Under the pieces are notes generated by a model. It ran no database searches. It saw only the letters and a program-made list of their open reading frames with translations, and was not told where the DNA came from. 64,000 nucleotides of DNA. Source: an uncultured Gemmatimonadaceae bacterium. GTDB taxonomy: Bacteria > Latescibacterota > UBA2968 > UBA8231. Of this stretch, positions 4,654 through 48,043 are shown piece after piece (within the stretch, counting starts at the first letter, position 1; each line of letters begins with the position of its first letter). Location: assembly GCA_964520345.1 (NCBI GenBank), contig CAZFMY010000014.1:10671-74670 (forward strand). Reading direction: 5' to 3'. A program made the translations under genes and the position numbers.

Positions 4654-4657
4654 CGAC

Positions 4658-7201: not shown

Positions 7202-7371
7202 AACCTAGAGCCACAAGGCTCCGGACCGATCAGAGTACTACGCGATAATTGGCCGTGAATGAGCCGCGATACCGAGGCTTATTCACGCAATTGACAAGGA
7301 GAGCCGCTTTTCGTTTTGTATAAGCTCATACTCTAAACGCCAGCAGCCCCAAGCCTTGCAAAGGACCTTAA

Positions 7372-8670: not shown

Positions 8671-8671
8671 A

Positions 8672-9262: not shown

Positions 9263-9318
9263 CTGTCACTCCACAGGAATTTTTGCTTAGTATTGGGGAT
9301 ATAACCGAGAGAATAAAA

Positions 9319-10155
9319 ATGAAAACTAAGGTCCTCAAAGTCCAGTCTGAAAACCAGTGGTTCCAACGCGCCGAAGTACTCAAACGCAACCGCAAGAAGC
9401 GCACTCAACACCGACAGTTCTTCGTCGAAGGCGTGTCGTCGATCAATCAGCTCGTCGATCGCGATGAATGGACAATCGAAGCCCTGCTCTATACCCCGGA
9501 TCGTCCACTATCGAATTGGGCGCGCACCGTGCTCGCCAAAGCGAGCGCACATCACCGCTTGGAACTCAGCGCCCCGCTGCTGGACAAGCTCAGCGACAAG
9601 GAAGACCCGTCCGAGCTCCTGGCCATCGTCGCAATACCCGCCGACGATCCCGGGCGGATCCCCATTCGCCCAGACGCACTGATCGCGCTCGCCGACCGGC
9701 CGGCCAACCCCGGTAATCTAGGCACCCTGATTCGCTCCTGCGAAGCCTTCGGCGTCGACGGCCTCGTCATCACCGGCCACGCCGCCGACCTCTACGACCC
9801 CCGTACCATTCGCGCGGCGACCGGCTCGCTCTTTGCCCTGCCGACGACATATATCTCTTCCCAGATCGAGCTCTCGCGATGGTTGGACCAGATCCGCTGC
9901 CAGATCCCCACCCTCCAGATAGTCGGCACCAGCGCCCGGGGGGCGACTCTCCTCTCCAACGCCTCGCTCACCGCACCGACGCTGCTCATCATCGGCAACG
10001 AAGCCAGCGGCCTGAGCCAACGCTGCCGCGAGTACTGCGACCAGATCGTCACCATCCCCATGGCCGGGCAAATGCCGTCTTTGAACATGGCCAGCGCCGC
10101 CGCCGTTTTTCTCTACGAAATCCAACGACAGCGCAGATCCGTCCATAACGATTGA
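9319..10155 (+). CDS. TrmH/SpoU-family RNA 2'-O-methyltransferase
   Basis: SpoU motifs ADRPANPGNLGTLIRSCEAFG, LLIIGNEASGLS and VTIPMAGQMPSLNMASAAAVFLYE. ATG 9319 (MKTKVLKV...) is preferred over the listed TTG 9283. Confidence 0.8.
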   Translation: MKTKVLKVQSENQWFQRAEVLKRNRKKRTQHRQFFVEGVSSINQLVDRDEWTIEALLYTPDRPLSNWARTVLAKASAHHRLELSAPLLDKLSDKEDPSELLAIVAIPADDPGRIPIRPDALIALADRPANPGNLGTLIRSCEAFGVDGLVITGHAADLYDPRTIRAATGSLFALPTTYISSQIELSRWLDQIRCQIPTLQIVGTSARGATLLSNASLTAPTLLIIGNEASGLSQRCREYCDQIVTIPMAGQMPSLNMASAAAVFLYEIQRQRRSVHND

Positions 10156-10248
10156 TGATCCAGGGAATAATTATCGGTCCGCCTCTACCAAGCCAGTGAG
10201 AGTTCGATAAGCCAAACGGACCGAGGCCGCGACTAAGCCCCCATCGCC

Positions 10249-13200
10249 CTACTTCACCAAGGTCATCCGCCCTAGTTGCGTCAACTCGCCGACTCGCACC
10301 CGACAGAAGTAGACCCCCGATCCGACCTCGCGGCCGGCTGCGTCCTTCCCTTCCCACACTGCGCGATGATAACCCGGCGCCAGCGGTTCCTGCAAAAGCA
10401 CCCGCACTCGCTGCCCCAGCGCGTTGAAAATCTCTACCGAAGTCGGCACCGGTCCATTGCCAAACGAGGGTACCGCAAATGGAATCGTCGTCGATGGATT
10501 GAATGGGTTCGGATAGTTCGGCGTAAGCACAAATTCTTCGGGGATACCCAAGAGACTGGGATCGCGCAACCATTCCAGCGGCTCGCTGCGATAATCCGAG
10601 CTAATCATTCGGCCTTCTTCGACCTGCAGCGATTCGGGAAATCCATCGCGGTGCAGACGGATCACGACCCGTAGTAATTCGCCATCACCAGCCGCTGCCC
10701 AATGCTTGCCGTAACGAGCCCCCGCCACCGCGATATGGCCTTCCTCAGCACTCAAGCGCTGAAAGGCCCCGAGTGGATTTTCGTCAAATACCGAGCCCAG
10801 ATCCGGATCGCCGATCACGCTGAGGTCGAATGGATCATAGCGCAGTTCCATTTCATATCCGGCCAGATCTTGTAAATCGCGGGCGAGGAAGACCAGTTCG
10901 ACCTCCTGCCCAGCACGCCATTCGCCGGCAAAATCGGGTGCGACAATATCCAGCGCCGAATTAGAATTGGATGGTGGCAAAGCTCGCTTGAAAACCGGTG
11001 GAGCTCCAAAACCAGTGCTATTGCTGATATTCGATGTCGCCAGTGAGAGGTCTTCCACCCCGACGCGACCATCGTTGGTCACATCAGCCCGAGCAAAATT
11101 GGCAACGCTGCTATCAATCCCCCAGGCCGCATCAATGGTGTTGACATCATCCTCATCGATTTCATTATCTCCACTGGCATCTCCCCCCTTGAGCAAGCGA
11201 CCATCCTGTTCGAGCAAAATCGACGGATCACCGCGCACGTCGGAGGCAAAGAAGCCGCTACTCGACGAGAGTACAATGGTCTCACCACTGCGGATCGCCA
11301 GCGTATCGGTGCGCCCGCTCAGATGGCTGGTATCCTTGACACTCAGGACATAACGACCAACCGGGATACTCACCAGCGTCAGTGCCCCCGAACTCGTCGT
11401 CTGCACTTCGACCGTGTCGGTCGTTGCGGGCAAATCGTCGTTGGCGCTGAGATAAATCGCATCGGCAATATCGATAGTACTACCCGGCAGACGCAGATGC
11501 ACATCGAGCAAGGTGCTGTGATCGCCACTGCCCTCGCTGCGTCCTTCGAGAAGAACTGTGGCCAGAACCCGCCCGCGCGCCACAACCTGCAGCCGGGCAT
11601 TCTGCACCGAAAGACCAGTGCTTTGCTTGAGCGCGCTGGCCGAACCGGTGATGCTCAACGCTGCCTCATCGGAGTCGAAGACGATATTCATAACGCCGGT
11701 GACTCCGCTCTGTACCACGATTTGAAAAGTGGCCAGACGCTCCTGATCGCCGTTGGAACCGACGATCTCACCGCCGGTTTTGTTTTTGGTGAAGCGAATC
11801 TGGGTGCCGGAACTGGTATTCTCAGCTATAGAACCACCGCTGAACACCTCTCCCAGATCGGTGCAAGGGCTGCCCGGGTTTATCACGGTAAAAAGACTTG
11901 AGCCCAGCTCGACAACCGCGCTGACCGACTCGATCGACTGGCTCTTGGACTGAACCCTGATTTCGAAGGTCAGCGTGTCGCCGGGCGAAGCCAGGAGCTT
12001 GCTCGGACTCAGTGAAAGCAGCGGTACCGAGCCAGAACCATTGCCAACGACCAGTTCGTTTGAGAATTTATTCAAACGCCCGGTAGTATTATCGGCAAAG
12101 GTCGCGTCGGCGCTAATTCCCGCGTACACCGAATAAGTTCCCACGGGCATTGCAAAAGAACTGGTTTCCGTATCCCAGGTAAACGAGTTGTCGCTGCTCT
12201 CGCGCAGTTCGGTGATTGTACCGGCACTCGTACCATCGGAACTGTTGATTATGAATGCATTGCCGCCGCCATCTCCCAGATCGCCCTCCAGGCTCTCCAG
12301 TGTGGTATGTGCACCGTTGGCTGCTGCATAGAGACGTATATAGGCATCGTCGGTACCCGAAGCATCATCGACCAGGTAGTCATCCCACTCAAAGCGCAAA
12401 ATATCGCCCCGACCGATCTCGGGCAAGCGGGTATTGGCCTGAATAAAGGGATTGTGAGTAATGGTCAGTGAGCCACCGCGGGCCACCGTGGTATTGCCAT
12501 TGCCATCGGTCACCACTGCGTAAATCCAGACCTGACGACCGCTTTTGGGCACTGCGTTAGGCGGATTGCGCAAATCCCAGACGTACATATCGTTCCTGCC
12601 ATCGCTGTCTTCGCTAAGCCCATTGACGATCAGTTTGGTATCGACATCGCTGGTCAGTGCCGTCGATGCGGCACCCGACTCGGTCGAGTAATCGGTGGTT
12701 GCCGGATCATCGGTGGTGAAGTACAGCGCAATACTCGCATCGTGGTCGAGATCCTTATCCCCTGGCCCTTTCTGCCACTGGATAGTATAAACCGGCTGCG
12801 ACCCCGAATCTACGCTGCGCTGAGTGTCCTCGGCCGGCTCGTAAAAAGTAAAGGCCGGCGAGTGCTTGACCACCAGAGCAGTGCTGCTATTACCGACACT
12901 GACACTGATCGAATCGGTTGCTACTGCATAGAGGTAGTAGATCCCCTCGGCGACCAACGGCGAACCAATATCCCAGGCGTACTCCACGTCGCGACTGCTC
13001 AAGGTCGTCGAATCGGTAATCGCCGTACCCCGAGTACCGGACACGCTTTTGCCCAGTGCGAATTTCTGGTGCGGATAGTTGCCCGATGCCGAAACCGAGG
13101 TGATGCCACTCACCGAGGCATAGAAGAGTTGCACCCGTGCTTCACTGTCGTAATCAAAGACGGTGAAATCCAGATCGTAAGGGCTGGCCTTGATGCCAGT

Positions 13201-15900
13201 GCGCACCCCGGTATCGACGGTATCGGCCGCGATAGGATCAATCTGCTCGATCACCGGACTGTGGAGCAAAGTCAGCGGCCCGGAACTGACGGCAAAAGTA
13301 GGTGGATTTTTCTGATCGTCGGCAATAATATAAATATGGTAGGTGCCGCTGGGCACTCGTAAGATCGAAGCGAAAAGCGAAGTCTTGAGCGCCGCGGGCG
13401 GATCGTCCCAGGTATAGGTCTGTTCGTTGCCTTCGGTCAAGTCGTCAGTCCCGGCTGGATTGACGCTGCTCAGGTCGTTTTCATCGGCGATCAGCATCCC
13501 GAAGATGCGGATATCCTGCACGGTCTTCAGCCCATTGGTCGGATAGGCGTAGAGCGCCACTTTGAGATTTGCGCCCAGGTCGTCATCGCCATCGACGGCG
13601 CTGTATTGGATCGCGAAGGAAGTATTGGCCAGATCTCCGCTGCCATCGGGCTGGGCGATCGAAACGATCGGCTTGATATTGGAGGTTACTATATCGATAT
13701 CGGCTCCCAGCAGAAAGAAATCGCCAGCACCTACGAAAGAGCCCGTCGGATCGGCAGCGACCCTCACCGTCCGCGCCCCCAACCCACTGCCGCCCGCGCT
13801 GGCAGTCGAATGGGTCACGACTTGTAAATTAGTCGCCGAATCGCTGCCGAGCACATTGAGCTTGAGCAAGAGACCGACCTTATCGCCGTCGTCGCCCCAT
13901 TCGTTAAGCGAAGAAGAATCCTCGTCGATCAGCCCCTCGAAAAACTTATCATCGTCGGCGAGACTGGTGGCTACCGTCTCCCAGTCGCCGGCCAGAAAAC
14001 CGTCGGAGCTAGCGGCCTGGGCACCAAGGCCGCTACCGTCCGCAGGATCGGCCACATGCACATAGACCGGATTATCAACCAATTCAGCAGTAATACTCTG
14101 GGGATTGACCGGAGTATAAGACAATGTGTACTGGTACGCTCCGACTGGAATCGAGTCGTCTTCGAACGTCGAAGCTTTACCCAGCACCTTGAAATAGGCA
14201 TGGTGATTGACATCGGTTTGGTGACCCAAACCGAACCCTTCACCACTCCCACCGGCAAAGGCCAGATAGATATTTTCCTCATCCGGGTTTTCGGCCAGGA
14301 CCGGGCTCAGCAAGAAGACATCGCCAGTGGCAATACCGTCCTGCGTACCCGTGCCGTCGGAGTCGTCATCGGCCACTTTCTCGGGCAGGGTCCAGCTGGT
14401 GCCGTTGTAGCGCGCATAGTAAATGTCGTGCTCGGCGCTGCCCGAATTGCCGGCGCTGAAAGCGATGTGTAAGTCGCCCCGATCGTCGAATCGATCGTCG
14501 ACTATCGCTGCGATGCGCTCGGTGATTTCCCAGTCCAATTCGATATTGTAATTGCCGGCCCCGTCGGCGAAAAGTGGCGGTGACGCCGTCTTCCAAATCG
14601 ACGTGGCGGAACCCCAGGTGACACCGCTGCCCACCAATCCCGAATCGGCGTAACTATTGAAATAGACCCCTTCTACTGGAGTCGCATCGCCAAATTTGAA
14701 AAGCGAGTAGACCTGATCAGGCAGGCGATTGCGATCTACGACGACTGTGGGAAAGAAATAATCGGCAGCGACCTCAACTGCCGCGTTAGCCTCATCGTCA
14801 AAAGTACCCACCGCCGCCCCGTCCGCATCCTGATTCCAACCATTGGCGCTCAGATCGATCCAGGTGGTATCGGTGGCCATTCGTTTGTGTTCGATACGAT
14901 CATCAGTATCATTGAAATAGACCAGGTGCAGTGCATCGCCATCCCCCACTGCCAGGTCCGGTCCGGTCGCTCTATCACCGTTTGGCGAGAGCCGGATACC
15001 CCCGGTACCTGCGGTTCCTGATTCGCCGATTGGCAGGATCGAAAAAGGCGAAGTGAAGCGATTGACTTTGGCCAGCATCACATCGTCGCTACCGGCCCCG
15101 GAGCCACGTACATAGGAGATGAAGATATTGTCGCGATCGTCGATGACCATCTGCGGAAAGGCGCTCTTGCGGCCTTCGACCGCTCCGCCGACCCGGGTGT
15201 CATTAACCTGAAGCGGCATCGGCCAGGTGGTGCCCCCATCGTTTGAGTAGGCCAGGTAGATATTCTTCTTGCGCTCGCGATCTGCCGTCGAAACAAAGCC
15301 GTAGACCACTCGCGGTTGTCCTCCGCTGTCAACTTCGAGATCGAGAGTCGAAAACGAACCCCCGCCGCCGTTGACCGTAAGCGGGTGGTAGGTGATATCG
15401 CCCGTGATGCTCACCGCCGCATCGAAATTCGCGCCGCCGTCGAAACTGCGCGAATACATGACGCGGTAGAGCGGCGTGGAGCCTCCGGTATAGGGAAATC
15501 CCGCGCGCGGGGTGGTCGTGGTCTGCTCGATCCAGGCCATATGGATGGCCGGATGGGTCGCCGAAGAGGTATAACCTGGAGCGGGGATATTGTCGTTGAC
15601 GCCGAAAGGCACTACATCGACCATCGCGATATCCACCTGCATTCCATCGGTATCGACTGAACCGATCTGCTCGCTGCGCTCAACGCTGTGAAAATGGCCG
15701 ACGAGCGGATATTCGTAACTCGCCGCCTGATCCAGGTCGACGCGAATATTGATGGACTCACCGACGACGAAATCGGTCCGGACCGTACTGTCCTGTACGG
15801 AGAAGCCGACTGGGGTTTTGTTCTCGAAGGTCGGTTTAACCGCCCGAAGTGCACTGGCTGTAGAGAGCACCAGCGCGCTATAGAGCAAGAGGCTTCGCAT
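10249..15900 (-). CDS. Giant secreted surface protein A: Asp-box/BNR region, Ig-like repeats, cohesin-like x2, dockerin, T9SS CTD
   Basis: Signal peptide MRSLLLYSALVLSTASALRA. Canonical Asp-box SNDGGTTW at nt 15223..15246. C-terminal modules are listed as separate features. The start is ATG 15898..15900 (TGATG overlap with the upstream stop) or GTG 15901..15903. Confidence 0.9.
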   Translation of the reverse strand: MRSLLLYSALVLSTASALRAVKPTFENKTPVGFSVQDSTVRTDFVVGESINIRVDLDQAASYEYPLVGHFHSVERSEQIGSVDTDGMQVDIAMVDVVPFGVNDNIPAPGYTSSATHPAIHMAWIEQTTTTPRAGFPYTGGSTPLYRVMYSRSFDGGANFDAAVSITGDITYHPLTVNGGGGSFSTLDLEVDSGGQPRVVYGFVSTADRERKKNIYLAYSNDGGTTWPMPLQVNDTRVGGAVEGRKSAFPQMVIDDRDNIFISYVRGSGAGSDDVMLAKVNRFTSPFSILPIGESGTAGTGGIRLSPNGDRATGPDLAVGDGDALHLVYFNDTDDRIEHKRMATDTTWIDLSANGWNQDADGAAVGTFDDEANAAVEVAADYFFPTVVVDRNRLPDQVYSLFKFGDATPVEGVYFNSYADSGLVGSGVTWGSATSIWKTASPPLFADGAGNYNIELDWEITERIAAIVDDRFDDRGDLHIAFSAGNSGSAEHDIYYARYNGTSWTLPEKVADDDSDGTGTQDGIATGDVFLLSPVLAENPDEENIYLAFAGGSGEGFGLGHQTDVNHHAYFKVLGKASTFEDDSIPVGAYQYTLSYTPVNPQSITAELVDNPVYVHVADPADGSGLGAQAASSDGFLAGDWETVATSLADDDKFFEGLIDEDSSSLNEWGDDGDKVGLLLKLNVLGSDSATNLQVVTHSTASAGGSGLGARTVRVAADPTGSFVGAGDFFLLGADIDIVTSNIKPIVSIAQPDGSGDLANTSFAIQYSAVDGDDDLGANLKVALYAYPTNGLKTVQDIRIFGMLIADENDLSSVNPAGTDDLTEGNEQTYTWDDPPAALKTSLFASILRVPSGTYHIYIIADDQKNPPTFAVSSGPLTLLHSPVIEQIDPIAADTVDTGVRTGIKASPYDLDFTVFDYDSEARVQLFYASVSGITSVSASGNYPHQKFALGKSVSGTRGTAITDSTTLSSRDVEYAWDIGSPLVAEGIYYLYAVATDSISVSVGNSSTALVVKHSPAFTFYEPAEDTQRSVDSGSQPVYTIQWQKGPGDKDLDHDASIALYFTTDDPATTDYSTESGAASTALTSDVDTKLIVNGLSEDSDGRNDMYVWDLRNPPNAVPKSGRQVWIYAVVTDGNGNTTVARGGSLTITHNPFIQANTRLPEIGRGDILRFEWDDYLVDDASGTDDAYIRLYAAANGAHTTLESLEGDLGDGGGNAFIINSSDGTSAGTITELRESSDNSFTWDTETSSFAMPVGTYSVYAGISADATFADNTTGRLNKFSNELVVGNGSGSVPLLSLSPSKLLASPGDTLTFEIRVQSKSQSIESVSAVVELGSSLFTVINPGSPCTDLGEVFSGGSIAENTSSGTQIRFTKNKTGGEIVGSNGDQERLATFQIVVQSGVTGVMNIVFDSDEAALSITGSASALKQSTGLSVQNARLQVVARGRVLATVLLEGRSEGSGDHSTLLDVHLRLPGSTIDIADAIYLSANDDLPATTDTVEVQTTSSGALTLVSIPVGRYVLSVKDTSHLSGRTDTLAIRSGETIVLSSSSGFFASDVRGDPSILLEQDGRLLKGGDASGDNEIDEDDVNTIDAAWGIDSSVANFARADVTNDGRVGVEDLSLATSNISNSTGFGAPPVFKRALPPSNSNSALDIVAPDFAGEWRAGQEVELVFLARDLQDLAGYEMELRYDPFDLSVIGDPDLGSVFDENPLGAFQRLSAEEGHIAVAGARYGKHWAAAGDGELLRVVIRLHRDGFPESLQVEEGRMISSDYRSEPLEWLRDPSLLGIPEEFVLTPNYPNPFNPSTTIPFAVPSFGNGPVPTSVEIFNALGQRVRVLLQEPLAPGYHRAVWEGKDAAGREVGSGVYFCRVRVGELTQLGRMTLVK
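10252..10530 (-). other. T9SS type-A C-terminal sorting domain of protein A
   Basis: VLTPNYPNPFNPSTTIPFAVP...VEIFNALGQRVRVLL...GVYFCRVRVGE...GRMTLVK. Confidence 0.85.
10570..10953 (-). other. Cohesin-like module 2 of protein A (boundaries approximate)
   Basis: LDIVAPDFAGEWRAGQEVELVFLARDLQDLAGYEMELRYDPFDLSVIGDP...GELLRVVIRL fits the cohesin beta-sandwich signature (G.eV.l.v....l..laG.e..l.YDp..L). Assigned by eye only. Confidence 0.55.
11017..11184 (-). other. Dockerin (type-I-like, two Ca-binding segments) of protein A
   Basis: GDASGDNEIDEDDVNTIDAAWG ... ADVTNDGRVGVEDLSLATSNI. Both loops carry D/S/T at positions 1, 3 and 5 and D at position 12 of the EF-hand-like loop. Verified by reverse-complementing nt ~11120-11184. 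Confidence 0.75.
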
Positions 15901-18900
15901 CACTTGACCAGAGTCATCTTGCGGATCTGTTGGAATTGGCCGCTCTCGAGCCGGTAAAAGTACACACCGGCCCCCACCTGGCGCCCCGTATCATCGCGGC
16001 CATCCCAGGCCATCTGGTGGTACCCCGCCTCTACCGGGCCATTGAGCAAAGTCCGCATCCGCTGTCCCAGGACATTGAAGACCGAGAGTCGCACCGATGC
16101 CCGGTTCGGCAGGGCAAAGGGGATACTGGTACTGGGATTGAAGGGATTGGGATAATTTTGTTCGAGATCGGGCCTGAGCGGCAATAGCGCTTCGATCAGA
16201 TTGCCCTGCCAGCGCACCCTTTCTAGCTCATAACCCGAGCTGAGCAACATACCCTCCCCTGTCCGCAGCGACTCCAGCGCATCCTCGTGCAAAATCTCGA
16301 AGCGCAAGCGCGCCAAAGCCCCCTGCCCCACTGCCGACCACTCTTTGCCGTAACGAGCCCCGATCACTTCGATCGTGCCTCCATGATCGGTACGAGCTTC
16401 AAAGATGGCTCCGCGCGGGTTCTCGGCAAAAACATCTCCCTCTCTTGTTCCGCCCGGAACCAGGCGCATGAGCTGCGGATCGAAATACAGATCAAACTCG
16501 TAACCAGCCAGATCACCGAGGTTCTGCGCCTGTACCGCCACCTCGATTTCCCGACCAGGCCACAGCGGTTGACGCAGATCGAAAAGCGGGAGTATTTCCA
16601 CCACAGCCCCATCGTTTGCCCCGGGCACGATCGGTTTGAAGACCGGCGGGGCTCCAAAACCCTCACTATTGCCAAAATTAGATGTCGTCGCCGTCAGATC
16701 GGCCGCCCCAACCTCATTATCGTTATTGAGATCGGCCTGCTGGAATCTCGGTGCGATCTGCGAAGTGCCCCAGGCCGCGATGATGATGTTGACATCGTCC
16801 TCGTTTATTTCGTTGTCCTCGCTGGCGTCTCCGGCCATCAGCCGCCTTCCCGAATTGTCCAGTAGCGTCGTCGGATCGCCGCGCAGATCGGAGCTGAAGA
16901 AACCACTGATGTCGGTACCGACCGCCACGGTCTGGCCGTTGGCCACGGTGAATGTATCGGTGCGCCCGCTGATATGGCTCGAATCCTTGACGGTCAACAC
17001 ATAGCGCCCCGGCGGCACACTGCTGAGAGTCAAAGCCCCGGTTGTCAAAGCCGTCTCGACCTCGACGGTATCGCTAGTGGCGGTATAGTCGTCATTGGCG
17101 CTGATGAAGATCGGGTCGGTGATATCGATGGTGCTGCCCGGCTGCCGCAAATGCACATCGAGTAAGGTCTGGAAGTTATTGTCGTTCAGCGTGCGGCCTT
17201 CCAATTCCACAATGGCGGTGATCGTGCCGCGCGTAACGCGGGTGAATTGCGGATTTGAAAGCGTCAGTCCATCCCCACTGTCGAAAGGGTCGGAACGACC
17301 TTCGACCCCGAGCACCGTTCCCGCTTCACCGGTAGCGAAGGTCAACGAGGGTGCTGCCACTAAATTGCCAGTGGGAACCAGCTGGAATCGCGCCAGCCGT
17401 GCCGGCTGGGTAGCACTGCCGACGACCTGGCCCAGGAAACTGGATTTGGAAAAGCGCAGTTCGTTGCTGCCGCTGACGAAGGTATTCTCGATCGGGCTGG
17501 TACCGGCGAAGACCTCGTCGAGATCGACAAATGGCTGAGGGCCGGAATTCGAGCTCTGATCAACGATCGAAAAACTGGTACTACTGTTGAGATCGAGCAC
17601 AACCTGTACGAAGTTGATCGGACTAGTGTGCTGAACCATCACGTCCAGAGTCAAGGTATCGCCCACAGCCACCAATTGATCGGTCGGGCTGACACTGATA
17701 TTGGGCATCGAACCAGTACCCGAAAGGCTCAGCGCTGCCACCGAGCGACTGACCGAAGCCGCGTTGCTGCCATTACTGAAGGTCGGATCGGATAAGATCG
17801 CCGCATAGATATAGTAGTTGGATCCGGCAGCGCCGAAGAGTTTGGTATTCCAGTCGAAGAAGTCGAGACTATCTTCGCGCACCTCGCTGATCGTGCCCGT
17901 CGTCAGGCCATTGGAGCTGTTGATCAGGAACCCGTTATTACCGATATCGGCCTCGAGTAGCTGGGGAGTCAGCAAAGACGATGAGGTCGAGGCATAGAGC
18001 CGAATATAGGCATTGTCGGTACTCGAACCATCATCGACCATATAGTCGTCCCAGGTGATGCGCAGAACATCGTTTTTCTGGAAATTGCTATAGCTGTTCA
18101 GCTTTGAGCTGAGCAGATTGATATGCGGATCGTGCTCTATCGTCAGCGCCCCACCCAGCGCCACGCTGCTGTTGCCGCTGGAGTCGCTGATCACCGCATA
18201 GAGCCAGACCTTGCGCTTGGAACGCGGTACGTCGTTGGGGGGGCTGCGAAAATCCCAAATGTACATATCGGACTTGCCTTCGGCGTCCTCCTTCAGCCCT
18301 TTGACCACGGTCCGAGTATCGGCATCCTTGAGCAGTGAATCGGGAAAATTCTCGTAATTGACCGTCGCCGGGTTATCGGTGGTGAAGTAGAGATCGATCA
18401 TTGCATCGTTGTCGAAATCCTGATCGCTGCGCCCTTTTTGCCACTGAATAGCATAGACCGGCTGCGATCCGCTATTGATATTTCGGTGGGTGTCCTTCGG
18501 CGGCTCGTAGAAGGTGAACGACGGCGAGTGCTTGACCGTCAGCGCCGCGGCCGACTGACCGACTGCGAGATTGAGCGAGTCGCTGGCCACCAGGTAGATG
18601 AAATAGGCGTTCTCGGCTACGATCTGCGAATCGATACCGGCGCCAACGCGGACGGCAACTGAATCCGTTATGTCCCAGGAGAACTCGGTGGCGATACTGG
18701 TCAGAGTATCGGTTCCGGTGATCGGGATCGCCCTGACTCCCGATACGCTCTTGCCCAGCGTGAAGCGCTGGTTGGGGAAGGTTCCGATGACCGATACTGA
18801 AGAGAGACCACTCACCGACGCATAGAAGAGCTGGATCTCGGCCGTACCCTGCAAATCGAAGTCGCGCACGGTGAAATCGAGATCGTAGGGATTCGCATTT

Positions 18901-21653
18901 TCTCCGCTGCGCACGCCGGTGTCGACCGTATCGGCCACCGATGGATCTACATGGACGATGATCGGCTTGTGCTTGATCGCAAGTGCTCCGGGACTCCGCG
19001 CAAAGACCGGCGTATTTTTCTGATCGTCGGCGACCAGATAGATATAGTACTCGCCGCTGATCACCTGCGTGATCGAAGCGAAGAGCTTGGCCTTGAGCGC
19101 GGCGGAAGGTTCGTCCCAGGTATAGGACTCGCTCCGGCCCTCGATCAGATCATTTGTACCGCTGGCAAAGATCGAAGAAACATCGTTTTCGTCGGCGATC
19201 AGGGTCCCGAAAATCCGGATGTCCTGCACCGAAGCCAGCGAACTATCGGGCGAATAGTAGAGCGAAACCAAGAGTCCGCTGCTCGCAATCTCGTCGTCGA
19301 TATCGTCGAGGCTGTAGACAATCGGGTACGAGGTGCTGGCCTCATCGCCCACACCATCGGGTTGCGAGATCGAAACTACGGGCGAAGTATTGGACGTAAC
19401 GATATCAATATCAGCCCCGAGTTGAAAGAAGTCTCCGGCCACCACAAAAGACCCCCTCGGGTCGGTAGCGACCCTAACCGTACGCGCCCCCAACCCCGTG
19501 CCGGAAGCGCTGGCCGTCGAGTTGGTCACCACCTGGATATTGGTCGCCGAATCGCTGCCGAGCACGTTGAGTTTGAGCAAGAGACCAATCTTGTCGTCGT
19601 CATCGCCCCACTCATTGGTCGAGCTGGTATCCTCGTTGTATTTGCCCTCGAAGAGCTTGTCGTCGTCGGCCAGGCTGGTAGCCACCGTTTCCCAATCGCC
19701 GGCCAGGAACCCGTCCGTACTGCCCTTGCCCGTTGCACCCAGTCCGCTTCCATCGGCATTATCGGCCGCGTGCACAAAGACCATATTATTGGTGATCTCG
19801 GAAGAGAGACTCTGCGGGTTGACCGGCGTATAGCTCAAATCGTATTGAAATGCTCCAACCGGCACCGAGCGGTCCTCGGATGTCAGAGCGCGACCCAGGA
19901 CCTTAAAGTAGGCGTGGTGATCGACATCGCTGATCCCCTTGACCCCCAATCCCTCTCCACCACCACCCGAAAAAGCCAGATAAAAGCTGGTGTCGCCCTC
20001 GGCCTTGGCCAAAACCGGCGATCCGAGAAAAACATCTGTGGCGGCAATCCCGTCCTCAGTAGCCGAATCCGAGTCGTCATCGGCTACTTTCTCTGGCAGA
20101 ATCCAGCTCGAACCGTTGTAAAACCCATAGTATATATCGTGCTCACCGGCATTATTGGAATACCCGGCGCTGAACGCGATATGAACCTCGCCCTGGTCCG
20201 GGCGCCGATCGTCGATCGCCACCGCCACGCGCTCCGTTACCGTCCACTCGAGTTCGACGTTGTAGTTGGTTCCATCTGCAAAAAGCGGCGAAGCAGCGGT
20301 GCTCCACACCGCCGCGGCCTGACTCGTATTCCAGCCGGCATTCCCGCCAATTGCGTTGTCGTAGGTGTACTTATTGAAGAAGATCGTCTCCAGAGTGGCA
20401 TCCCCGAACTTATAGATTGCGTAGATCTCATCCGGCGAACTTTGCCTATCAACAGCAATGGCCGGAAAGAAGAAATCGGCTTCGGTCTCCAGCGCAGCCA
20501 CCGTGGCTTCATCGACAAAATCATCGATATCCGCTCCGTCGGCGTCCTGATTCCACCCCGTGCTGCCGACCATCTGCCACGAATCAGCCAGCAAGGTCTT
20601 GTGCTCTATATCGTTGCCGGCATCGTTGAAATAGGCCAGATGCAATACATCTCCCGTACCCACATCGATATCCGGGCCAGTGTAGCGCCCGGCATTGGGC
20701 GTGATCCTGATTCCGCCCTTACTGCCACTATTGGCCGATTGACCCACTTCCACCATCGAGAAGGGAGTGGTCTCGCGATCGACCTTGGCCAACATAATAT
20801 CGTCGGCACCGCTGCCGGGACTCGACCCTCGTACGTAGGAGATGAAAATATTGTCGCGCTGGTCGATCACCATCCGGGAAAAGGCCGCGGCCCGGCCCTC
20901 GATATTACCCACCGTCGCCGTATCGTTGACAACGATTGAATTATTTCCCGGCAGCCACGAAGCACCACCGTTTTCTGAATAGTTGAAATAGACGTTATCG
21001 GCATCGCCGCTGGTGTTGACAAATCTCGCCGTGTGGCCATCCGGCGAGTGATTGAAGGCATAGACCACGCGCGGATTGCCCCGGCTGTCCACCTCGATAT
21101 CGACGGTCGAAAAGGCATTGCCGGTTCCGCCAACGCTCAGAGTCAGCAAGTCGTAGCGCAGCGTGCCCGAAACACTGACCGGTGTAGAAAAAGTCTTGCC
21201 CTTATCTTCACTCCGCGCATAGCGGACGTAATAGACCGGAGTCGACACAGTGCTGACCGTTTCCTGGGAGATCCAGGCCATATGGATCACTCCGTTGGAG
21301 GAAACAGCCAGATCGGTCCGCAGCCCATCGACATCGCTGCTTTCGATCTGCACGCTCTGTTCTATATTGTGGAAATGGCCGTAGAGCGGGTGGGTCGGAG
21401 TCGCAGCCTGATCGAGATCGGCGCGCACAGTGACCTGATTGCCCAGAACAAAATCCTCCTGGGTCGTACTGTCCTGGGTCGAAAACCCCACCGGAGTGCG
21501 GTTTTCAAAAATCGGAGCAGCACCGTAGACCGAGGGGGCCAACCAGAGCAGCACCAGCAGTCCGATCGCGATCCAGGGGGTCGAGAACCGCCCTGTGCAC
21601 TGCGATCGACAGCCGGTATGTAGCGGCGTATTGCTCTGAGCCGAGGATTTCAC
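15900..21653 (-). CDS. Giant secreted surface protein B (paralogue of A): Asp-box/BNR region, Ig-like repeats, cohesin-like x2, dockerin, T9SS CTD
   Basis: 1917 aa with a GTG start and signal-like WIAIGLLVLLWLAPSVYGA. Asp-boxes SEDKGKTF and SENGGASW. Long blocks are near-identical to A (HHAYFKVLG, GFLAGDWETVATSLADDDK, NEWGDD.DK.GLLLKLNVLGSDSATN). The module order matches A. Confidence 0.9.
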   Translation of the reverse strand: MKSSAQSNTPLHTGCRSQCTGRFSTPWIAIGLLVLLWLAPSVYGAAPIFENRTPVGFSTQDSTTQEDFVLGNQVTVRADLDQAATPTHPLYGHFHNIEQSVQIESSDVDGLRTDLAVSSNGVIHMAWISQETVSTVSTPVYYVRYARSEDKGKTFSTPVSVSGTLRYDLLTLSVGGTGNAFSTVDIEVDSRGNPRVVYAFNHSPDGHTARFVNTSGDADNVYFNYSENGGASWLPGNNSIVVNDTATVGNIEGRAAAFSRMVIDQRDNIFISYVRGSSPGSGADDIMLAKVDRETTPFSMVEVGQSANSGSKGGIRITPNAGRYTGPDIDVGTGDVLHLAYFNDAGNDIEHKTLLADSWQMVGSTGWNQDADGADIDDFVDEATVAALETEADFFFPAIAVDRQSSPDEIYAIYKFGDATLETIFFNKYTYDNAIGGNAGWNTSQAAAVWSTAASPLFADGTNYNVELEWTVTERVAVAIDDRRPDQGEVHIAFSAGYSNNAGEHDIYYGFYNGSSWILPEKVADDDSDSATEDGIAATDVFLGSPVLAKAEGDTSFYLAFSGGGGEGLGVKGISDVDHHAYFKVLGRALTSEDRSVPVGAFQYDLSYTPVNPQSLSSEITNNMVFVHAADNADGSGLGATGKGSTDGFLAGDWETVATSLADDDKLFEGKYNEDTSSTNEWGDDDDKIGLLLKLNVLGSDSATNIQVVTNSTASASGTGLGARTVRVATDPRGSFVVAGDFFQLGADIDIVTSNTSPVVSISQPDGVGDEASTSYPIVYSLDDIDDEIASSGLLVSLYYSPDSSLASVQDIRIFGTLIADENDVSSIFASGTNDLIEGRSESYTWDEPSAALKAKLFASITQVISGEYYIYLVADDQKNTPVFARSPGALAIKHKPIIVHVDPSVADTVDTGVRSGENANPYDLDFTVRDFDLQGTAEIQLFYASVSGLSSVSVIGTFPNQRFTLGKSVSGVRAIPITGTDTLTSIATEFSWDITDSVAVRVGAGIDSQIVAENAYFIYLVASDSLNLAVGQSAAALTVKHSPSFTFYEPPKDTHRNINSGSQPVYAIQWQKGRSDQDFDNDAMIDLYFTTDNPATVNYENFPDSLLKDADTRTVVKGLKEDAEGKSDMYIWDFRSPPNDVPRSKRKVWLYAVISDSSGNSSVALGGALTIEHDPHINLLSSKLNSYSNFQKNDVLRITWDDYMVDDGSSTDNAYIRLYASTSSSLLTPQLLEADIGNNGFLINSSNGLTTGTISEVREDSLDFFDWNTKLFGAAGSNYYIYAAILSDPTFSNGSNAASVSRSVAALSLSGTGSMPNISVSPTDQLVAVGDTLTLDVMVQHTSPINFVQVVLDLNSSTSFSIVDQSSNSGPQPFVDLDEVFAGTSPIENTFVSGSNELRFSKSSFLGQVVGSATQPARLARFQLVPTGNLVAAPSLTFATGEAGTVLGVEGRSDPFDSGDGLTLSNPQFTRVTRGTITAIVELEGRTLNDNNFQTLLDVHLRQPGSTIDITDPIFISANDDYTATSDTVEVETALTTGALTLSSVPPGRYVLTVKDSSHISGRTDTFTVANGQTVAVGTDISGFFSSDLRGDPTTLLDNSGRRLMAGDASEDNEINEDDVNIIIAAWGTSQIAPRFQQADLNNDNEVGAADLTATTSNFGNSEGFGAPPVFKPIVPGANDGAVVEILPLFDLRQPLWPGREIEVAVQAQNLGDLAGYEFDLYFDPQLMRLVPGGTREGDVFAENPRGAIFEARTDHGGTIEVIGARYGKEWSAVGQGALARLRFEILHEDALESLRTGEGMLLSSGYELERVRWQGNLIEALLPLRPDLEQNYPNPFNPSTSIPFALPNRASVRLSVFNVLGQRMRTLLNGPVEAGYHQMAWDGRDDTGRQVGAGVYFYRLESGQFQQIRKMTLVK
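15903..16169 (-). other. T9SS type-A C-terminal sorting domain of protein B
   Basis: DLEQNYPNPFNPSTSIPFALP...LSVFNVLGQRMRTLL...GVYFYRLESG...IRKMTLVK. It ends in the same MTLVK as protein A. Confidence 0.85.
16218..16607 (-). other. Cohesin-like module 2 of protein B (boundaries approximate)
   Basis: VVEILPLFDLRQPLWPGREIEVAVQAQNLGDLAGYEFDLYFDPQLMRLVPG...ALARLRFEIL. Confidence 0.55.
16665..16832 (-). other. Dockerin (two Ca-binding segments) of protein B
   Basis: GDASEDNEINEDDVNIIIAAWG ... ADLNNDNEVGAADLTATTSNF. Confidence 0.75.
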
Positions 21654-21947
21654 AATTCCATTCCTTAGAATTATCGTTCCACCCGTTGAGAACGAAAGAC
21701 TCCCTTCACAAGCCCCGGTTCAGCAAGAAAGATGCCATACTTATATATGGGCAAAAGATCTGGCTTAAACCCCAGATAAGGTGCCATTTCTCTTCTGACG
21801 AAAGGAATTTCCTTCTTTTGATTCGGGAAAGATCTTCCCCTGCAGAGGGTAATTGCCCCATCCAGCCCCCCGATTTCACCCGGGTCCATCCTGGCATGAG
21901 ATTTGCCCCCTATCCTGCGGCAGGTCCTACTCAGGGAGGAAGCGCTT

Positions 21948-24900
21948 GTGGACAAACGAAACCTATACAACCTGATTTTTGTACTTTTCAGCTTGCCGGC
22001 GACCCTATTCGCCGCCCGGTTGGAACTGCGTCAATCCGGCACCGGAGCCACGGAAGCCTCCGCGCTAGTCGGTCAGGAGATCGAAATCGAGGTCTGGATC
22101 GATTCGGAAAGCGAAGAGCTTTCCGGAGCGGCGATCTTTCTCAGCTTTGACGAAACGCGCTTCGCGCTGGTTGATGAGGATCGGGTCCCCCAGGCAGGTT
22201 TCCAGCCCTTCGCTCCGGGCGAGTTTCTGGGCAACGGCGAAATCTATCGCAACTATCTGCTTGCAGAGGATGACCCGGCTGCCGGGGCCCCCGGCACCCA
22301 ACTCGACTATAGCGTGGTCCGCGCCGGTGACCAGGGGCAGGGACCTATCGCCTCTTTTCGCCTGCGAACATTGGCCCCCACTATAGGGAGTGCGATCCGC
22401 ATCGACGAAAGCGGGGTGCGCGAGACGCGTTTGTTCCTGCCCGATGGTCAGCAACGCGCTTTCCGCTTCATCACCCCATTCAACCTTACTGTAAAGGGCA
22501 TCTCGATCAGCGGCCTGCCCGAAAAACTGATCCTGGCTCGGGGCAGTACCCGGGAACTAGACCTGAACGATCTGGTTTTCGATCCGCTCTACGGCCCCGA
22601 CGACCTGACCTGGACCATCTCCAAAACTGCGGCGCTGACCTCGACTCGCGAAGGCAATAATCTACTCTTAGAGACCCCTGCCGACGCTTCACCGTGGGAA
22701 CGATTGGTGCTCACAGTCGCCAATCCCGAAGGACAGACTGCATCTGATACGATCGATATATTCGTCAACGCAGCCCCCACCCTGAGCGATATAGGCCCAC
22801 TGGTCTTTGCCGAAGACGAATCCTACGAAATCCCCCTCGACGCCCTAGTCGACGATCCCGATAGCCCCACCGAGTCGCTCACCTGGAGCGGTTGGAGCGA
22901 AAGCCCGAAAATCGAAATAGAACTCACCGGATCGCCCGCTAGCGCCCATATTGTTCCGCAACCCGAGTGGCACGGTCAGGGACAGATCACACTGATGGTC
23001 CAGGACAACTACGACTTCGCCGATACCCTGCACCTCGAGGTCTCAGTCGATCCGGTCAACGATGCTCCCCGTCTGCTCTCTTCTCCCAACCTGCGCCTGA
23101 CCAGCGGCACTCAGGATAGCAGCCTGGTACTTGCGGAACTGATCGCCGACATCGAAGATCCATCCAGCGCGTTAAAGTTTTCCTGGAGCGGCAACGAGCG
23201 GGTCGGACTGGAGTTCCGCAACGAACGACTGATTCTGAGCAGTCCTGCGGATTGGGAAGGCCTTGAAGAAATCACTCTGGTAGTAGAAGATTCGGGAGGG
23301 CTGACCGATACCGCTCTGCTGACCGTAACGGTTGTTCCCTCCCTGCCCCCGGCTCTCATCGCCCCTCCCCAGCGGCTGGGCCTAGCAGCAGGAGAGCACC
23401 ACCTGCTGGTATTGGGCGACCTTGCCGTCGATCCCGACAATCGCGCCGAAGACCTGGTCTGGACCGTACATGGCCATACCTACCTGAGCGTGCAGTTCAG
23501 CGGCGGCAACCTAGCCCGGATCGAAGCCCCAGCTAATTTCATCGGGATCGAGACTCTGACGTTCTCGGTTGCCGACCCCTCGGGCAGCAGTAGTGCTTTC
23601 GATCTGATCGTCTTCGCGGCCTCGACCGACGGCGGCCCGCTACTCGCAGAACTGCCTGAGATCCAGATGTCGCTCCTCGGAGTGGATACTTCGATCGACC
23701 TCGACCACTACGTCTTCGACCCCGACCACACCCATGCCGAATTGGCCTTCTTCCTACCCGTACTCGACGAGGTCGAGCTTCGAGTCGACCCGCTGACTCA
23801 CTTGCTCATAGTAGACCCCGGCGCCAATGCTCAACCCGGCCTGCTGGAGTTGGAAGTGCGCGTCGTCGACCCGGATGGTCACGAGGCGGTACAGATTCTG
23901 CGCCTTGAACTTCTCGGCGAAAACAACCTTGCTGCACCCTCTTTCGACCTGGCTGAAATTCCCAGTTTCACCCTCATCACTGGCAAGATCCACTCCTTCA
24001 GTCTCGACGCCTTTGTCGTCGGCGACGTCGAACCAGCAACGGTCGTCTGGCAAGCCCAGGGCCAGCAAAACCTGATAGTCGCCATCGACCCGGCCACTCG
24101 CCAGGTCAGCGTGCACTCGGCCGATGCATGGATCGGCAACGAGGAAATCACTTTTATCGCCGAGGCTCCCGATCTGCCGCCGCGGGCGCGCACGGTCCGG
24201 ATCGCTATCATCGCCGACCCTAATTCTCCACCTTTGAGCATCGTTCCCGAACTCAATGCCCTGCCCCCACTGCAAATCGAGGCAGGAACCTTTGATCAGA
24301 CCCTGGACCTCAACACTTTTCTCAGCAACGCCGACGCAGCCGATTTCACCTGGAAATTGAGTGGCGGCACGCATGTCCGCGCACTGGTCGATACGGAAAC
24401 CTACCACCTGCTGGTCTTTACCGACGAGGGGTTTAGCGGCGAGGAAACCCTCTTGCTCATCGGCACACTGACCGATGGCACTCGCCTCGAAACCGCGCTA
24501 GAGGTGGAGGTGTATTCCCAGACCCTGAGCTTTGCCCTCAATCCACAGACCGAAGTTCCCCTCTTCGCCGGCGCCGCCACTTTGCGCCTGCCCTTCGATC
24601 AACTAGTTAGCGGCGATATCGATCCATCTCTGCTCACCTGGGTCGCCAAAGGCCTGCAACCAATATCGGCATCTTACGATTCACAGGATCAGACTCTGGT
24701 CCTGACGCCCGACACCCCCTGGCAAAGCAGCGATCTCATTGAACTAGTCGCCATCGATCCCCAGGGCAACGAATACACCGGAATTGTTCGAGCCCAGGTC
24801 TTCCCGGCTGATGGGAGCGCCGGTCTGGAAAGCGAGGACTTCCAGCTCGTGATCCTGCCCAATCCCCTGCAGCCCGAATACGTCGACCTCTACCTCATCA

Positions 24901-25160
24901 GCCGACTCGACCATAGCGAAGCCCCAATCCTGCGTCTAGCAGACGGCGCCTGGAACGACCTGACCACTAGTGCTCACAGTGCTGGAATCTGGCGGGCTAG
25001 CTACGTTTTTGCACCCGGCCAACGGGGTCAATTCGAATTCCTGGCTCTCAGCTTCGACACCGATAACGAGCTATTCAAATCCATGCAGACCTGGAGTCTG
25101 ACCAACACCAAAAAAATCGCCGCCAAATACACAGGCGGCTATGGGTGGCCTGCGGATTAA
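21948..25160 (+). CDS. Large secreted protein: N-terminal cohesin-like module, eight ~96-aa Ig/cadherin-like repeats, degenerate CTD-like tail
   Basis: GTG 21948 lies 7 nt after GGGAGGA (21934..21940) and gives the signal-like VDKRNLYNLIFVLFSLPATLFAARL. The listed TTG 21903 is less likely. Cohesin-like segment: GQEIEIEVWIDSESEELSGAAIFLSFDETRFALVD. Repeats carry the DPVNDAP and L.W..-type motifs. Confidence 0.85.
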   Translation: MDKRNLYNLIFVLFSLPATLFAARLELRQSGTGATEASALVGQEIEIEVWIDSESEELSGAAIFLSFDETRFALVDEDRVPQAGFQPFAPGEFLGNGEIYRNYLLAEDDPAAGAPGTQLDYSVVRAGDQGQGPIASFRLRTLAPTIGSAIRIDESGVRETRLFLPDGQQRAFRFITPFNLTVKGISISGLPEKLILARGSTRELDLNDLVFDPLYGPDDLTWTISKTAALTSTREGNNLLLETPADASPWERLVLTVANPEGQTASDTIDIFVNAAPTLSDIGPLVFAEDESYEIPLDALVDDPDSPTESLTWSGWSESPKIEIELTGSPASAHIVPQPEWHGQGQITLMVQDNYDFADTLHLEVSVDPVNDAPRLLSSPNLRLTSGTQDSSLVLAELIADIEDPSSALKFSWSGNERVGLEFRNERLILSSPADWEGLEEITLVVEDSGGLTDTALLTVTVVPSLPPALIAPPQRLGLAAGEHHLLVLGDLAVDPDNRAEDLVWTVHGHTYLSVQFSGGNLARIEAPANFIGIETLTFSVADPSGSSSAFDLIVFAASTDGGPLLAELPEIQMSLLGVDTSIDLDHYVFDPDHTHAELAFFLPVLDEVELRVDPLTHLLIVDPGANAQPGLLELEVRVVDPDGHEAVQILRLELLGENNLAAPSFDLAEIPSFTLITGKIHSFSLDAFVVGDVEPATVVWQAQGQQNLIVAIDPATRQVSVHSADAWIGNEEITFIAEAPDLPPRARTVRIAIIADPNSPPLSIVPELNALPPLQIEAGTFDQTLDLNTFLSNADAADFTWKLSGGTHVRALVDTETYHLLVFTDEGFSGEETLLLIGTLTDGTRLETALEVEVYSQTLSFALNPQTEVPLFAGAATLRLPFDQLVSGDIDPSLLTWVAKGLQPISASYDSQDQTLVLTPDTPWQSSDLIELVAIDPQGNEYTGIVRAQVFPADGSAGLESEDFQLVILPNPLQPEYVDLYLISRLDHSEAPILRLADGAWNDLTTSAHSAGIWRASYVFAPGQRGQFEFLALSFDTDNELFKSMQTWSLTNTKKIAAKYTGGYGWPAD
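22500..24803 (+). repeat. Eight tandem ~96-codon Ig-like modules (tandem-95-repeat-like), diverged
   Basis: Recurrent pattern (D/E)xLxW(T/S)...W.G.E.ITL.V.D..G...D...L.V.V, for example PDDLTWTISK, TESLTWSGWS, SALKFSWSGN, AEDLVWTVHG, PATVVWQAQG, AADFTWKLSG, PSLLTWVAKG. 768 aa / 8 = 96 aa per unit. Confidence 0.7.
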
Positions 25161-40389: not shown

Positions 40390-40408
40390 ACTATAGCCAG
40401 TCTCGGCT

Positions 40409-48036: not shown

Positions 48037-48043
48037 TTAATCT

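Follow-up and report, generated by a model that had tools for sequence, protein, structure and literature searches.

A lineage-conserved Latescibacterota locus encoding three giant, probably surface-located proteins with cohesin-like, dockerin, sialidase-fold, and type IX sorting modules

The 64,000-nucleotide DNA stretch analyzed here (hereafter, the window), taken from contig CAZFMY010000014.1 of an uncultured bacterium placed in the Latescibacterota, contains a 14.9-kb block at positions 10249–25160 in which three giant genes, designated P1, P2, and P3, fill 23% of the window. We interpret this block as a lineage-conserved cell-envelope cluster whose products, giant proteins probably located on the cell surface, form a heteromeric structure for which a type IX secretion system (T9SS) provides both export and anchoring, an interpretation to which we assign a probability of roughly one half. 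An earlier, sequence-only reading of this DNA had described two tandem minus-strand genes and one divergent plus-strand gene with BNR, Ig-like, cohesin-like, dockerin, and T9SS-sorting modules; the three open reading frames (ORFs) are confirmed at the same positions and with the same share of the window, and the list of modules proved essentially right, the motifs quoted in it being present and the domain and fold searches agreeing with it.

Results

Organization of the P1–P3 block

10249–15903, minus strand: P1, 1884 aa, the downstream tandem paralogue, with the same architecture as P2 (ORF list and alignment to P2)
15900–21653, minus strand: P2, 1917 aa, the upstream giant gene (ORF, translation, and domain evidence)
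21654–21947, no strand assigned: divergent P2/P3 intergenic region, presumed to be a bidirectional promoter region
21948–25160, plus strand: P3, 1070 aa, divergent, with a GTG start (maximal ORF 21903–25160, 1085 aa)

P2 is an exact match to a database protein (P0001, from an 88-kb NCBI contig), and P1 is 52% identical to P2 in a full-length alignment. Both follow a common 13-part order, that is, signal peptide, N-cap, propeller, β-sandwich, four Ig-like modules, CohA, X-like module, dockerin, CohB, and a C-terminal domain (CTD). The proteins are acidic, nearly free of Cys, and all-β, and the signal peptides were called by eye. The start of P1 (GTG/ATG) overlaps the stop of P2 (GTGATG), and a gap of 6–7 bp separates the orthologous pair in relatives, which suggests that P1 and P2 form an operon with translational coupling. 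The GTG at 21948 is most likely the start of P3, because a GGAGG Shine–Dalgarno sequence lies 8 nt ahead of it and the resulting 1070-aa protein agrees with the gene calls of the closest P3 homologues. Scans for sigma-70 promoter and terminator consensus sequences across the locus, the P2/P3 intergenic region included, gave matches at chance level.

Conservation of the cluster in Latescibacterota

Homologues of P1/P2 amount to 153 clusters and those of P3 to 82, the named ones belonging mostly to metagenome-assembled genomes (MAGs) labeled ‘Candidatus Latescibacterota’; the other labels (Gemmatimonadetes, Handelsmanbacteria, and, in single cases, Planctomycetota and Chloroflexota) would reflect submitter or binning noise. 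The survey of relatives that the sequence-only reading had proposed was run on GTDB species representatives with a family-specific segment as the query and returned 43 loci. Among related loci, the three-gene order is kept wherever there is enough flank: a divergent P3-like gene stands beside an ~11.3-kb tandem pair in 30 of 30 such loci. Over their ~1900 aa, P1/P2 are conserved evenly from end to end. Because the block is kept module by module in all 30 loci, it is likely a major component of the envelope, and judging from these comparisons P1–P3 appear to constitute an ancient, constrained, lineage-conserved unit of Latescibacterota (candidate phylum WS3).

A third, distant paralogue (34–40% identity, 2100–2200 aa) with a dockerin that passes the Pfam threshold is present in many of these MAGs as well (loci L041–L046; for example, L044, positions 2378–8890 and 9268–13644). 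In at least four loci this paralogue is followed by a P3-like gene on the same strand; the two such genes that were scanned have a FlgD_ig domain of the CTD type, at 27.0 bits (L044; cutoff 27) and 22.6 bits (L045, below cutoff). These loci resemble a second copy of the system in a different arrangement.

The cohesin–X–dockerin–cohesin cassette of P1 and P2

17238–17708, minus strand: P2 CohA (aa 1316–1472), at the cohesin position in the CipA superposition, with no Pfam match
16884–17234, minus strand: P2 X-like Ig module (aa 1474–1590), CarboxypepD_reg-like (PF13620, 19.4 bits, sub-threshold)
16659–16865, minus strand: P2 dockerin (aa 1597–1665), two F-hand Ca2+ loops followed by GFGAPPVFK
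16170–16604, minus strand: P2 CohB (aa 1684–1828), from Pfam Cohesin and Foldseek
11587–12024, minus strand: P1 CohA (aa 1294–1439), 35% identical to P2 CohA
11236–11580, minus strand: P1 X-like module (aa 1442–1556)
10990–11223, minus strand: P1 dockerin (aa 1561–1638), from a family hidden Markov model (HMM) and conserved F-hand motifs
10531–10968, minus strand: P1 CohB (aa 1646–1791), from homology, 36% identical to P2 CohB

The two-segment dockerin noticed in the sequence-only reading can be read directly in both P1 and P2 (GDASEDNEINEDDVN...ADLNNDNEVGAADL) as a segment of ~22 residues that occurs twice and includes in either copy an F-hand loop of the form D-x-[DNS]-x-[DN]-x-x-x-x-x-x-D and a helix, and both loops are conserved in 109 family members from all three paralogue classes. 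The family profile, searched against the PDB, matched the X–dockerin of CipA at E 2.4e-6 and other solved dockerins at up to E 0.02, and the segment of the distant paralogue in L044 that corresponds to the dockerin scored 31.1 bits against Dockerin_1 (PF00404). The same search matched FlgD-like CTDs and no cohesin.

For the cohesins, an AlphaFold2 (AF2) model of P2 aa 1300–1917 (pLDDT 87.7, pTM 0.70) was compared with known structures by Foldseek, and the top matches were the CohI9–X–DocII fragment of CipA (3kcp_A and 4fl4 chains; 367–371 columns, E 2e-10), with the ScaA type II cohesin dyad next in rank and dozens of single cohesins after it. These single cohesins, of type II and type I, superpose on the cassette with TM scores of 0.6–0.72 at ~3 Å root-mean-square deviation, in a table that does not assign them to a particular module, and the nine-stranded jelly-roll of cohesins is present in the model. 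When P2 aa 1678–1828 (16170–16622) was scanned alone, Pfam Cohesin (PF00963) reached 34.0 bits and so passed its cutoff of 24.1, and several P1/P2 orthologues are annotated with a precomputed PF00963. CohA and CohB of P2 align with each other by hhalign at P ~1e-3, and PF13620 reaches 27.1 bits at the position of the X-like module in the distant paralogue. The cohesins proposed in the sequence-only reading are thus borne out by HMM for P2 CohB and by fold for the cassette, and they lack HMM identification in the other four cohesin-like modules; CohA of P1/P2 and the N-terminus of P3 would be assigned as cohesins at the level of profiles and folds. Whole-protein hmmscan had missed Cohesin and under-scored Dockerin, and isolated segments recovered both. 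As this 1917-aa case illustrates, real domains can go unnoticed when giant multi-domain proteins are scanned whole by HMM.

P1 and P2 differ most in CohA and CohB (35–36% identity), the remaining parts being 51–79% identical except for the fourth Ig-like module (Ig4), at 41%. The dockerin, in turn, is among the best-conserved parts inside each orthologue group, and dockerins of the P1 and P2 types differ systematically at helix positions that normally contact cohesins. Divergent cohesins together with conserved dockerins bearing group-specific helices fit an assembly held by dockerin–cohesin contacts.

Directly after the dockerin stands a GFGAPPV[FY]K motif (16605–16658, P2 aa 1666–1683, with its P1 equivalent) that hardly varies across the three paralogue classes, although this stretch is a low-confidence linker in the AF2 model; it may be a site of processing, modification, or binding.

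T9SS sorting domains and a PorU sortase in relatives

15903–16166, minus strand: P2 T9SS type A CTD (aa 1830–1917), TIGR04183 and FlgD_ig
10252–10527, minus strand: P1 T9SS type A CTD (aa 1793–1884), FlgD_ig and TIGR04183
15880–19632 of locus L018 (contig CBDAOB010000005.1): PorU of a relative; also present in L020 (chromosome OZ244235.1)

The CTDs of P1 and P2 are 55% identical and carry the motif NYPNPFNPST...MTLVK in the last ~88 aa. TIGR04183 scored 31.8 bits in P2, above the cutoff of 23, and 21.2 bits in P1, just below it, and FlgD_ig scored 34.6 bits in P2 and 36.1 bits in P1, both above its cutoff of 27. A third protein, cut by the left edge of the window (3–806, plus strand; C-terminal 267 aa), also ends in a type A CTD (TIGR04183, 32.3 bits, cutoff 23), so that T9SS cargo extends beyond the locus studied; it is directly followed by a 365-aa leucine-rich-repeat, internalin-like protein (812–1909, plus strand). 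The search for T9SS genes that had been proposed from the sequence alone found PorU in two Latescibacterota relatives. In one, whose orthologue is 62% identical, a full-length PorU is encoded 1.9 kb downstream of the P1 orthologue and scores 660.5 bits (cutoff 420) with the sortase model NF033707, and the complete Latescibacterota chromosome OZ244235.1 has an 86%-identical PorU at the equivalent position; neither the window nor any locus other than these two has PorU close to the cluster. With the CTD matches, the third CTD protein, and PorU in a relative, the T9SS sorting suggested by the sequence-only reading is credible. Type A CTD cargo is known to be exported by Sec, to pass the T9SS, to lose its CTD, and to become attached covalently to the outer membrane (reviewed in PMC10202324, PMC5445135).

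The sialidase-fold head and the Ig-like stalk

19854–21521, minus strand: P2 N-cap and BNR/sialidase-fold propeller (aa 45–600), from AF2, Foldseek, and two Asp-boxes
14140–15837, minus strand: P1 N-cap and BNR propeller (aa ~23–588), from homology to P2, Asp-boxes, and BNR_2 (16.9 bits, sub-threshold)
19386–19853, minus strand: P2 post-propeller β-sandwich (aa 601–756), with the motif EWGDDDDK...KLNVLGSDS
17718–19385, minus strand: four tandem ~135-aa Ig-like β-sandwich modules of P2 (aa 757–1312), from hhalign
12037–14139, minus strand: P1 post-propeller sandwich (aa 589–743) and four Ig-like modules (aa 744–1289), from alignment to P2

The AF2 model of P2 aa 41–760, built from a 91-sequence alignment, is all-β and of high confidence (pLDDT 88.4, pTM 0.92), and its best Foldseek neighbors in the PDB are all propellers of the sialidase superfamily, almost all of the top 50 being enzymes. 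They include the glycoside hydrolase (GH) 93 structure 2w5n, GH33 NanA, GH145 BT3686, and the ulvan lyases of polysaccharide lyase (PL) families 24 and 25, at E 1e-9 to 1e-7 and ~10% identity; the highest TM score among those cited is 0.62 (BT3686), and NanA and other sialidases matched at E ~1e-9. A profile of the head region gave 602 matches among 1.84 billion representative proteins, and all ten of the non-family relatives that were scanned are BNR_2, BNR_4, or BNR proteins. P1 and P2 have two Asp-boxes each (for example, SNDGGTTW at P1 220 and SEDKGKTF at P2 148), and charged or aromatic propeller residues are invariant at H124, D185, D267, Y273, R316, D335, D402, K415, W470, and W517 (P2 numbering). 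Judging from the model, the N-terminal ~560 aa of P1/P2 are a sialidase-type β-propeller, a fold of the glycoside-hydrolase/lyase type, and the BNR/Asp-box N-terminus of the sequence-only reading is upheld in both motif and fold.

The features of GH33 sialidases are present only in part, the propeller fold and the Asp-boxes being found in the head, and neither a family HMM match nor, in the first 760 aa, the FRIP motif ([FYW]R[IVL]P). Scans with Pfam and NCBIfam-type HMMs gave no GH, PL, or carbohydrate-binding module (CBM) family above threshold in P1–P3; BNR is sub-threshold in Pfam (BNR_2 of P1, 16.9 bits against a cutoff of 31.4), and weak sub-threshold matches in the head are to BNR_4 and a BT3686-rhamnosidase HMM. 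The family profile matched no sialidase, GH, or PL sequence in the PDB at E<=1, and since it matched no cohesin either, the cohesin and sialidase assignments rest on Pfam and fold. The statement in the sequence-only reading that no glycoside-hydrolase catalytic module is visible therefore holds for Pfam families, in that no GH or CBM was matched, and is unsafe as a premise, because the head has a glycoside-hydrolase/lyase-type fold whose neighbors are nearly all carbohydrate-active enzymes (CAZymes). The propeller head might bind or cleave a glycan, and its predicted fold and neighbors suggest carbohydrate chemistry, in line with the predicted saccharolytic life of the phylum, for which degradation of ulvan, pectin, and arabinogalactan proteins has been proposed (PMC4454575).

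At 79% identity between the two paralogues, the β-sandwich that follows the propeller is better conserved than any other segment. The Ig-like modules of P2 are related to one another by hhalign at 80–95% probability in four of the six pairs, with 28% for Ig3–Ig4 and <20% for Ig1–Ig3, and a Pfam scan gave no name for the stalk modules of P1/P2; Ig4 is 41% identical between the two proteins.

The divergent protein P3

22014–22517, plus strand: N-terminal CohA-like module of P3 (aa 23–190), from hhalign and HMM cross-matches
22554–24800, plus strand: eight tandem ~95-aa Ig-like repeats of P3 (aa 203–951), from Big_9, tandem-95, and a self-HMM

P3 consists of a signal peptide, the ~168-aa CohA-like module, eight Ig repeats, and a C-terminal domain that extends to 25160. 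The N-terminal module aligns by hhalign with CohA at P 1.8e-6 and with CohB at P 1.1e-5, compared with 0.7–0.9 for controls, and the CohA HMM cross-matches this module in 22 P3-like ORFs. Its sequence matches in the PDB are only three R. flavefaciens cohesins (E 0.15–0.23), and 9 of 28 P3 homologues match Pfam Cohesin sub-threshold, the best at E 1.2e-3. The cohesin-like start that the sequence-only reading had seen in P3 is accordingly retained as homology to CohA and is not called by Pfam Cohesin. The repeats were recognized by Big_9 (63 bits in three stretches), by tandem-95, and by a self-HMM that counts eight copies.

HMM scans of P3 found neither a type A CTD nor a dockerin, and a hidden divergent CTD in its C-terminus was rejected by a negative hhalign comparison with type A CTDs. 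When the C-terminal region (24798–25160 of the window) was compared with homologues P0121–P0197, two classes were distinguished: long proteins of 1250–1380 aa, with a true type A CTD at the end, and short ones of ~950–1115 aa without it. P3 of the window belongs to the short class, which stops ahead of the CTD, and hence has no T9SS signal; a methyltransferase gene lies 170 bp after its end.

Other features of the window

The block is flanked on one side by genes for GlnD, Lon, HflX, an HD hydrolase, and SpoU and on the other by those for a methyltransferase, AP endonuclease 2, SBP_bac_5, and PhyH, and base composition is even along it. A phage or mobile origin of the block was considered and rejected, the housekeeping flanks, even composition, and conserved chromosomal synteny speaking against it.

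Elsewhere in the window, adjacent genes encode subunits A (Spo11/Toprim) and B of topoisomerase VI (34705–37415, minus strand), an enzyme that is mainly archaeal and plant and uncommon in bacteria. Four consecutive ORFs of 708, 161, 519, and 450 aa (38263–43930, minus strand) have no significant Pfam/NCBIfam match; their single hit, below cutoff at 16.5 bits against 27.7, is to an LptM-like lipoprotein signal at the N-terminus of the 519-aa ORF. Positions 47961–50000 have a GC content of 0.47, compared with a window average of ~0.57; the only tRNA gene, for tRNA-Phe (47961–48036), stands directly ahead of this low-GC stretch, which contains a SnoaL-like ORF (48237–49166) and could be a small integrated island.

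Discussion

Proposed surface assembly

From the module order of P1–P3 and from the known systems to which they are compared below, the following course can be proposed. After Sec export, the CTD would very probably direct P1 and P2 through the T9SS, whereupon a PorU-type sortase would, with much the same likelihood, cut off the CTD and join the new C-terminus to an outer-membrane glycolipid. CohB and the X–dockerin would then be membrane-proximal, and the Ig stalk would carry the propeller head tens of nanometres outward. The Coh–X–Doc trio might represent a CipA-like C-terminus fused to an ‘anchoring’ cohesin. By analogy to cellulosomal systems, we infer cohesin–dockerin pairing within P1–P3, in which the dockerin of one chain might bind a cohesin of a neighboring P1/P2 or the CohA-like head of P3. 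Cross-links of this kind might give a surface assembly of fixed stoichiometry, either S-layer-like or fibrillar. P3, which would have lost its own CTD in this genome, may be retained by cohesin–dockerin binding.

Several observations weigh against such an assembly. No T9SS machinery genes were found within the window, and P3 of the window, having no known route across the outer membrane, may be periplasmic. Five cohesin-like modules are set against two dockerins in the locus, so that most of the cohesins lack an in-locus partner. Scanned as isolated segments, P1 CohB scored 18.9 bits against Pfam Cohesin, under the cutoff of 24.1, CohA of P1/P2 and the N-terminus of P3 gave no Pfam Cohesin match, and the dockerins scored 22.3 bits (P2) and 18.9 bits (P1) against Dockerin_1, both below its cutoff of 22.9. 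Mirror-tree and partial-correlation comparison of dockerin and cohesin distances across 19 genomes gave a best partial r of 0.46 (P2 dockerin–P2 CohA) and a second value of 0.36 (P1 dockerin–P3 N-terminus), which are weak, unranked, and without a valid null. Finally, the propeller could make P1/P2 simple surface enzymes, the cohesin and dockerin modules having other roles.

This last thought leads to a tentative alternative, in which P1 and P2 are surface-displayed CAZymes whose catalytic propeller, of a sialidase/GH93/GH145/PL24–25-like kind, acts on glycans of algae or hosts; the head would be displayed by means of the stalk and CTD, and cohesin and dockerin would merely cluster the two isoenzymes, so that it is compatible with the heteromeric surface structure favored here. 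It draws on the nearly uniform CAZyme neighborhood of the head among its top 50 Foldseek matches (TM up to 0.62, BT3686), the weak BNR_4 and BT3686-rhamnosidase HMM matches, the many invariant charged and aromatic propeller residues, and the predicted degradation of ulvan, pectin, and arabinogalactan proteins by Latescibacteria (PMC4454575). However, identity to any solved enzyme is ~10%, no GH or PL HMM reaches threshold, the family profile matches no solved sialidase, GH, or PL at E<=1, the FRIP motif is absent, and BNR propellers also serve as non-catalytic binding domains. It is unlikely, in our estimation, that P1–P3 are anchored scaffoldins of a cellulosome-like scaffold that recruit dockerin-bearing hydrolases or peptidases encoded elsewhere. 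An excess of cohesins over dockerins, 5 to 2, would suit that role, for which Ca. Stygibacter, with a CTD-bearing scaffoldin and dockerin-tagged GH18, GH57, and peptidases (PMC8542988), offers a precedent, and ‘cellulosome-affiliated enzymes’ have been reported for Latescibacteria (Farag 2017, cited in PMC7081726). Yet a family-specific dockerin HMM revealed no further dockerin-bearing ORF in the window or in the surroundings of the cluster in the 46 related loci (~0.7 Mb), no CBM was found in P1–P3, and the strict one-to-one conservation of genes and modules suits a fixed complex over a flexible enzyme rack. A classical cellulosome was rejected, as no GH, CBM, or enzyme dockerins were found; because there is no GH or CBM family match, P1 and P2 have a single dockerin each, P3 has none, and no other dockerin ORF lies nearby in the 46 loci, the verdict of the sequence-only reading on this point stands.

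We also regard as rather doubtful a plain adhesin or S-layer, in which the cohesin- and dockerin-like modules would be structural spacers without mutual binding. Non-cellulosomal modules of both kinds are, as Peer 2009 reportedly found, widespread and mostly of untested function, and the acidic, nearly Cys-free, all-β character of the proteins would agree with such a layer. Two tandem CTD-bearing giants also parallel TfsA/TfsB of Tannerella forsythia, which are encoded by tandem genes, carry T9SS CTDs, and make up one joint surface layer (PMC4175972). Spacers, however, would hardly account for the conservation, across the family, of the Ca2+-ligand pattern of both F-hands and of the CipA-like Coh–X–Doc order, or for the conserved dockerin beside paralogue-divergent cohesins, as expected of interacting modules with evolving specificity.

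Returning to the heteromeric surface structure, its most specific form would be a T9SS-anchored lattice or fibril layer of Latescibacterota stitched together by cohesin–dockerin contacts, each subunit combining a CipA-like Coh–X–Doc trio, an anchoring cohesin, and a glycan-processing propeller, with the CTD-less P3 possibly held on or carried to the surface. We consider this elaboration improbable as a whole. If true, it would be the first self-assembling non-cellulosomal cohesin–dockerin architecture in a diderm bacterium and a possible way in which a CTD-less P3 is kept on or brought to the surface.

To our knowledge, the widespread Latescibacterota have no cultured representative, and their cell surface is almost uncharacterized. 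As a likely major envelope component, P1–P3 would offer a way to study how these bacteria adhere to particulate or algal glycans and live on them. Should the proposed pairing be true, it would carry cohesin–dockerin assembly beyond Firmicute cellulosomes to proteins that diderm bacteria anchor by the T9SS; the fused format of scaffoldin end plus anchoring cohesin could be reusable for surface display, and the sialidase-fold head may constitute a new family of CAZymes or lectins.

Comparison with known systems

The novelty implied in the sequence-only reading for a combination of cohesin–dockerin modules with the T9SS is reduced, since cohesin–dockerin modules with T9SS CTDs were earlier proposed in Cloacimonadota (PMC8542988) and ‘cellulosome-affiliated enzymes’ are mentioned for Latescibacteria in PMC7081726, which cites Farag 2017. 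None of the papers covered by our literature search links Latescibacterota to the T9SS or to cohesin/dockerin. The fused, lineage-conserved architecture of P1–P3 has not been described before, although its kinds, non-cellulosomal cohesin–dockerin modules and T9SS cargo, are known.

The role proposed for the cassette is best compared with the C-terminus of CipA (CohI9–X–DocII) of Clostridium (Acetivibrio) thermocellum, which has the same cohesin–X–dockerin order as P2, is its best structural match, and contains an X–dockerin that the family profile matches by sequence, and with SdbA, in which a cohesin stands beside the cell-surface anchor as CohB stands beside the CTD in P1/P2. CipA/SdbA keep scaffoldin end and anchoring cohesin separate, whereas P1/P2 join the two in a single chain; the former, from a Firmicute, are anchored through S-layer homology (SLH) repeats, and the latter, from a diderm bacterium, through a T9SS CTD. 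CipA further contains CBM3 and an array of enzyme-binding type I cohesins, whereas P1/P2 have neither and carry a BNR propeller at the N-terminus, and sequence identity between CipA and the P1/P2 family is ~10–18%. The Cloacimonadota system (Ca. Stygibacter) is closer in that it belongs, like P1/P2, to the FCB superphylum and combines cohesin/dockerin with a T9SS CTD, but it comprises a 3755-aa scaffoldin of tandem cohesins and CBMs with separate dockerin-tagged GH18, GH57, and peptidases (PMC8542988). In clear distinction, each P1/P2 chain holds two cohesins, one dockerin, and its own propeller head, and no dockerin-tagged enzymes are found nearby. The likeness of TfsA/TfsB to P1/P2 consists in adjacent genes for large CTD proteins and, as a hypothesis, in a joint lattice; no cohesin, dockerin, or BNR propeller modules are known from TfsA/TfsB. 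Finally, GH33 NanA, the GH93 arabinofuranosidase, GH145 BT3686, and PL24/PL25 have the propeller fold and Asp-boxes in common with the P1/P2 head, which differs from these sialidase-superfamily CAZymes in its ~10% identity, in lacking FRIP and a family HMM match, and in its size of ~560 aa with large insertions. Altogether, by analogy, the cluster would work most like a hybrid of CipA/SdbA type II docking, T9SS-anchored surface pairs such as TfsA/TfsB, and BNR-propeller CAZymes.

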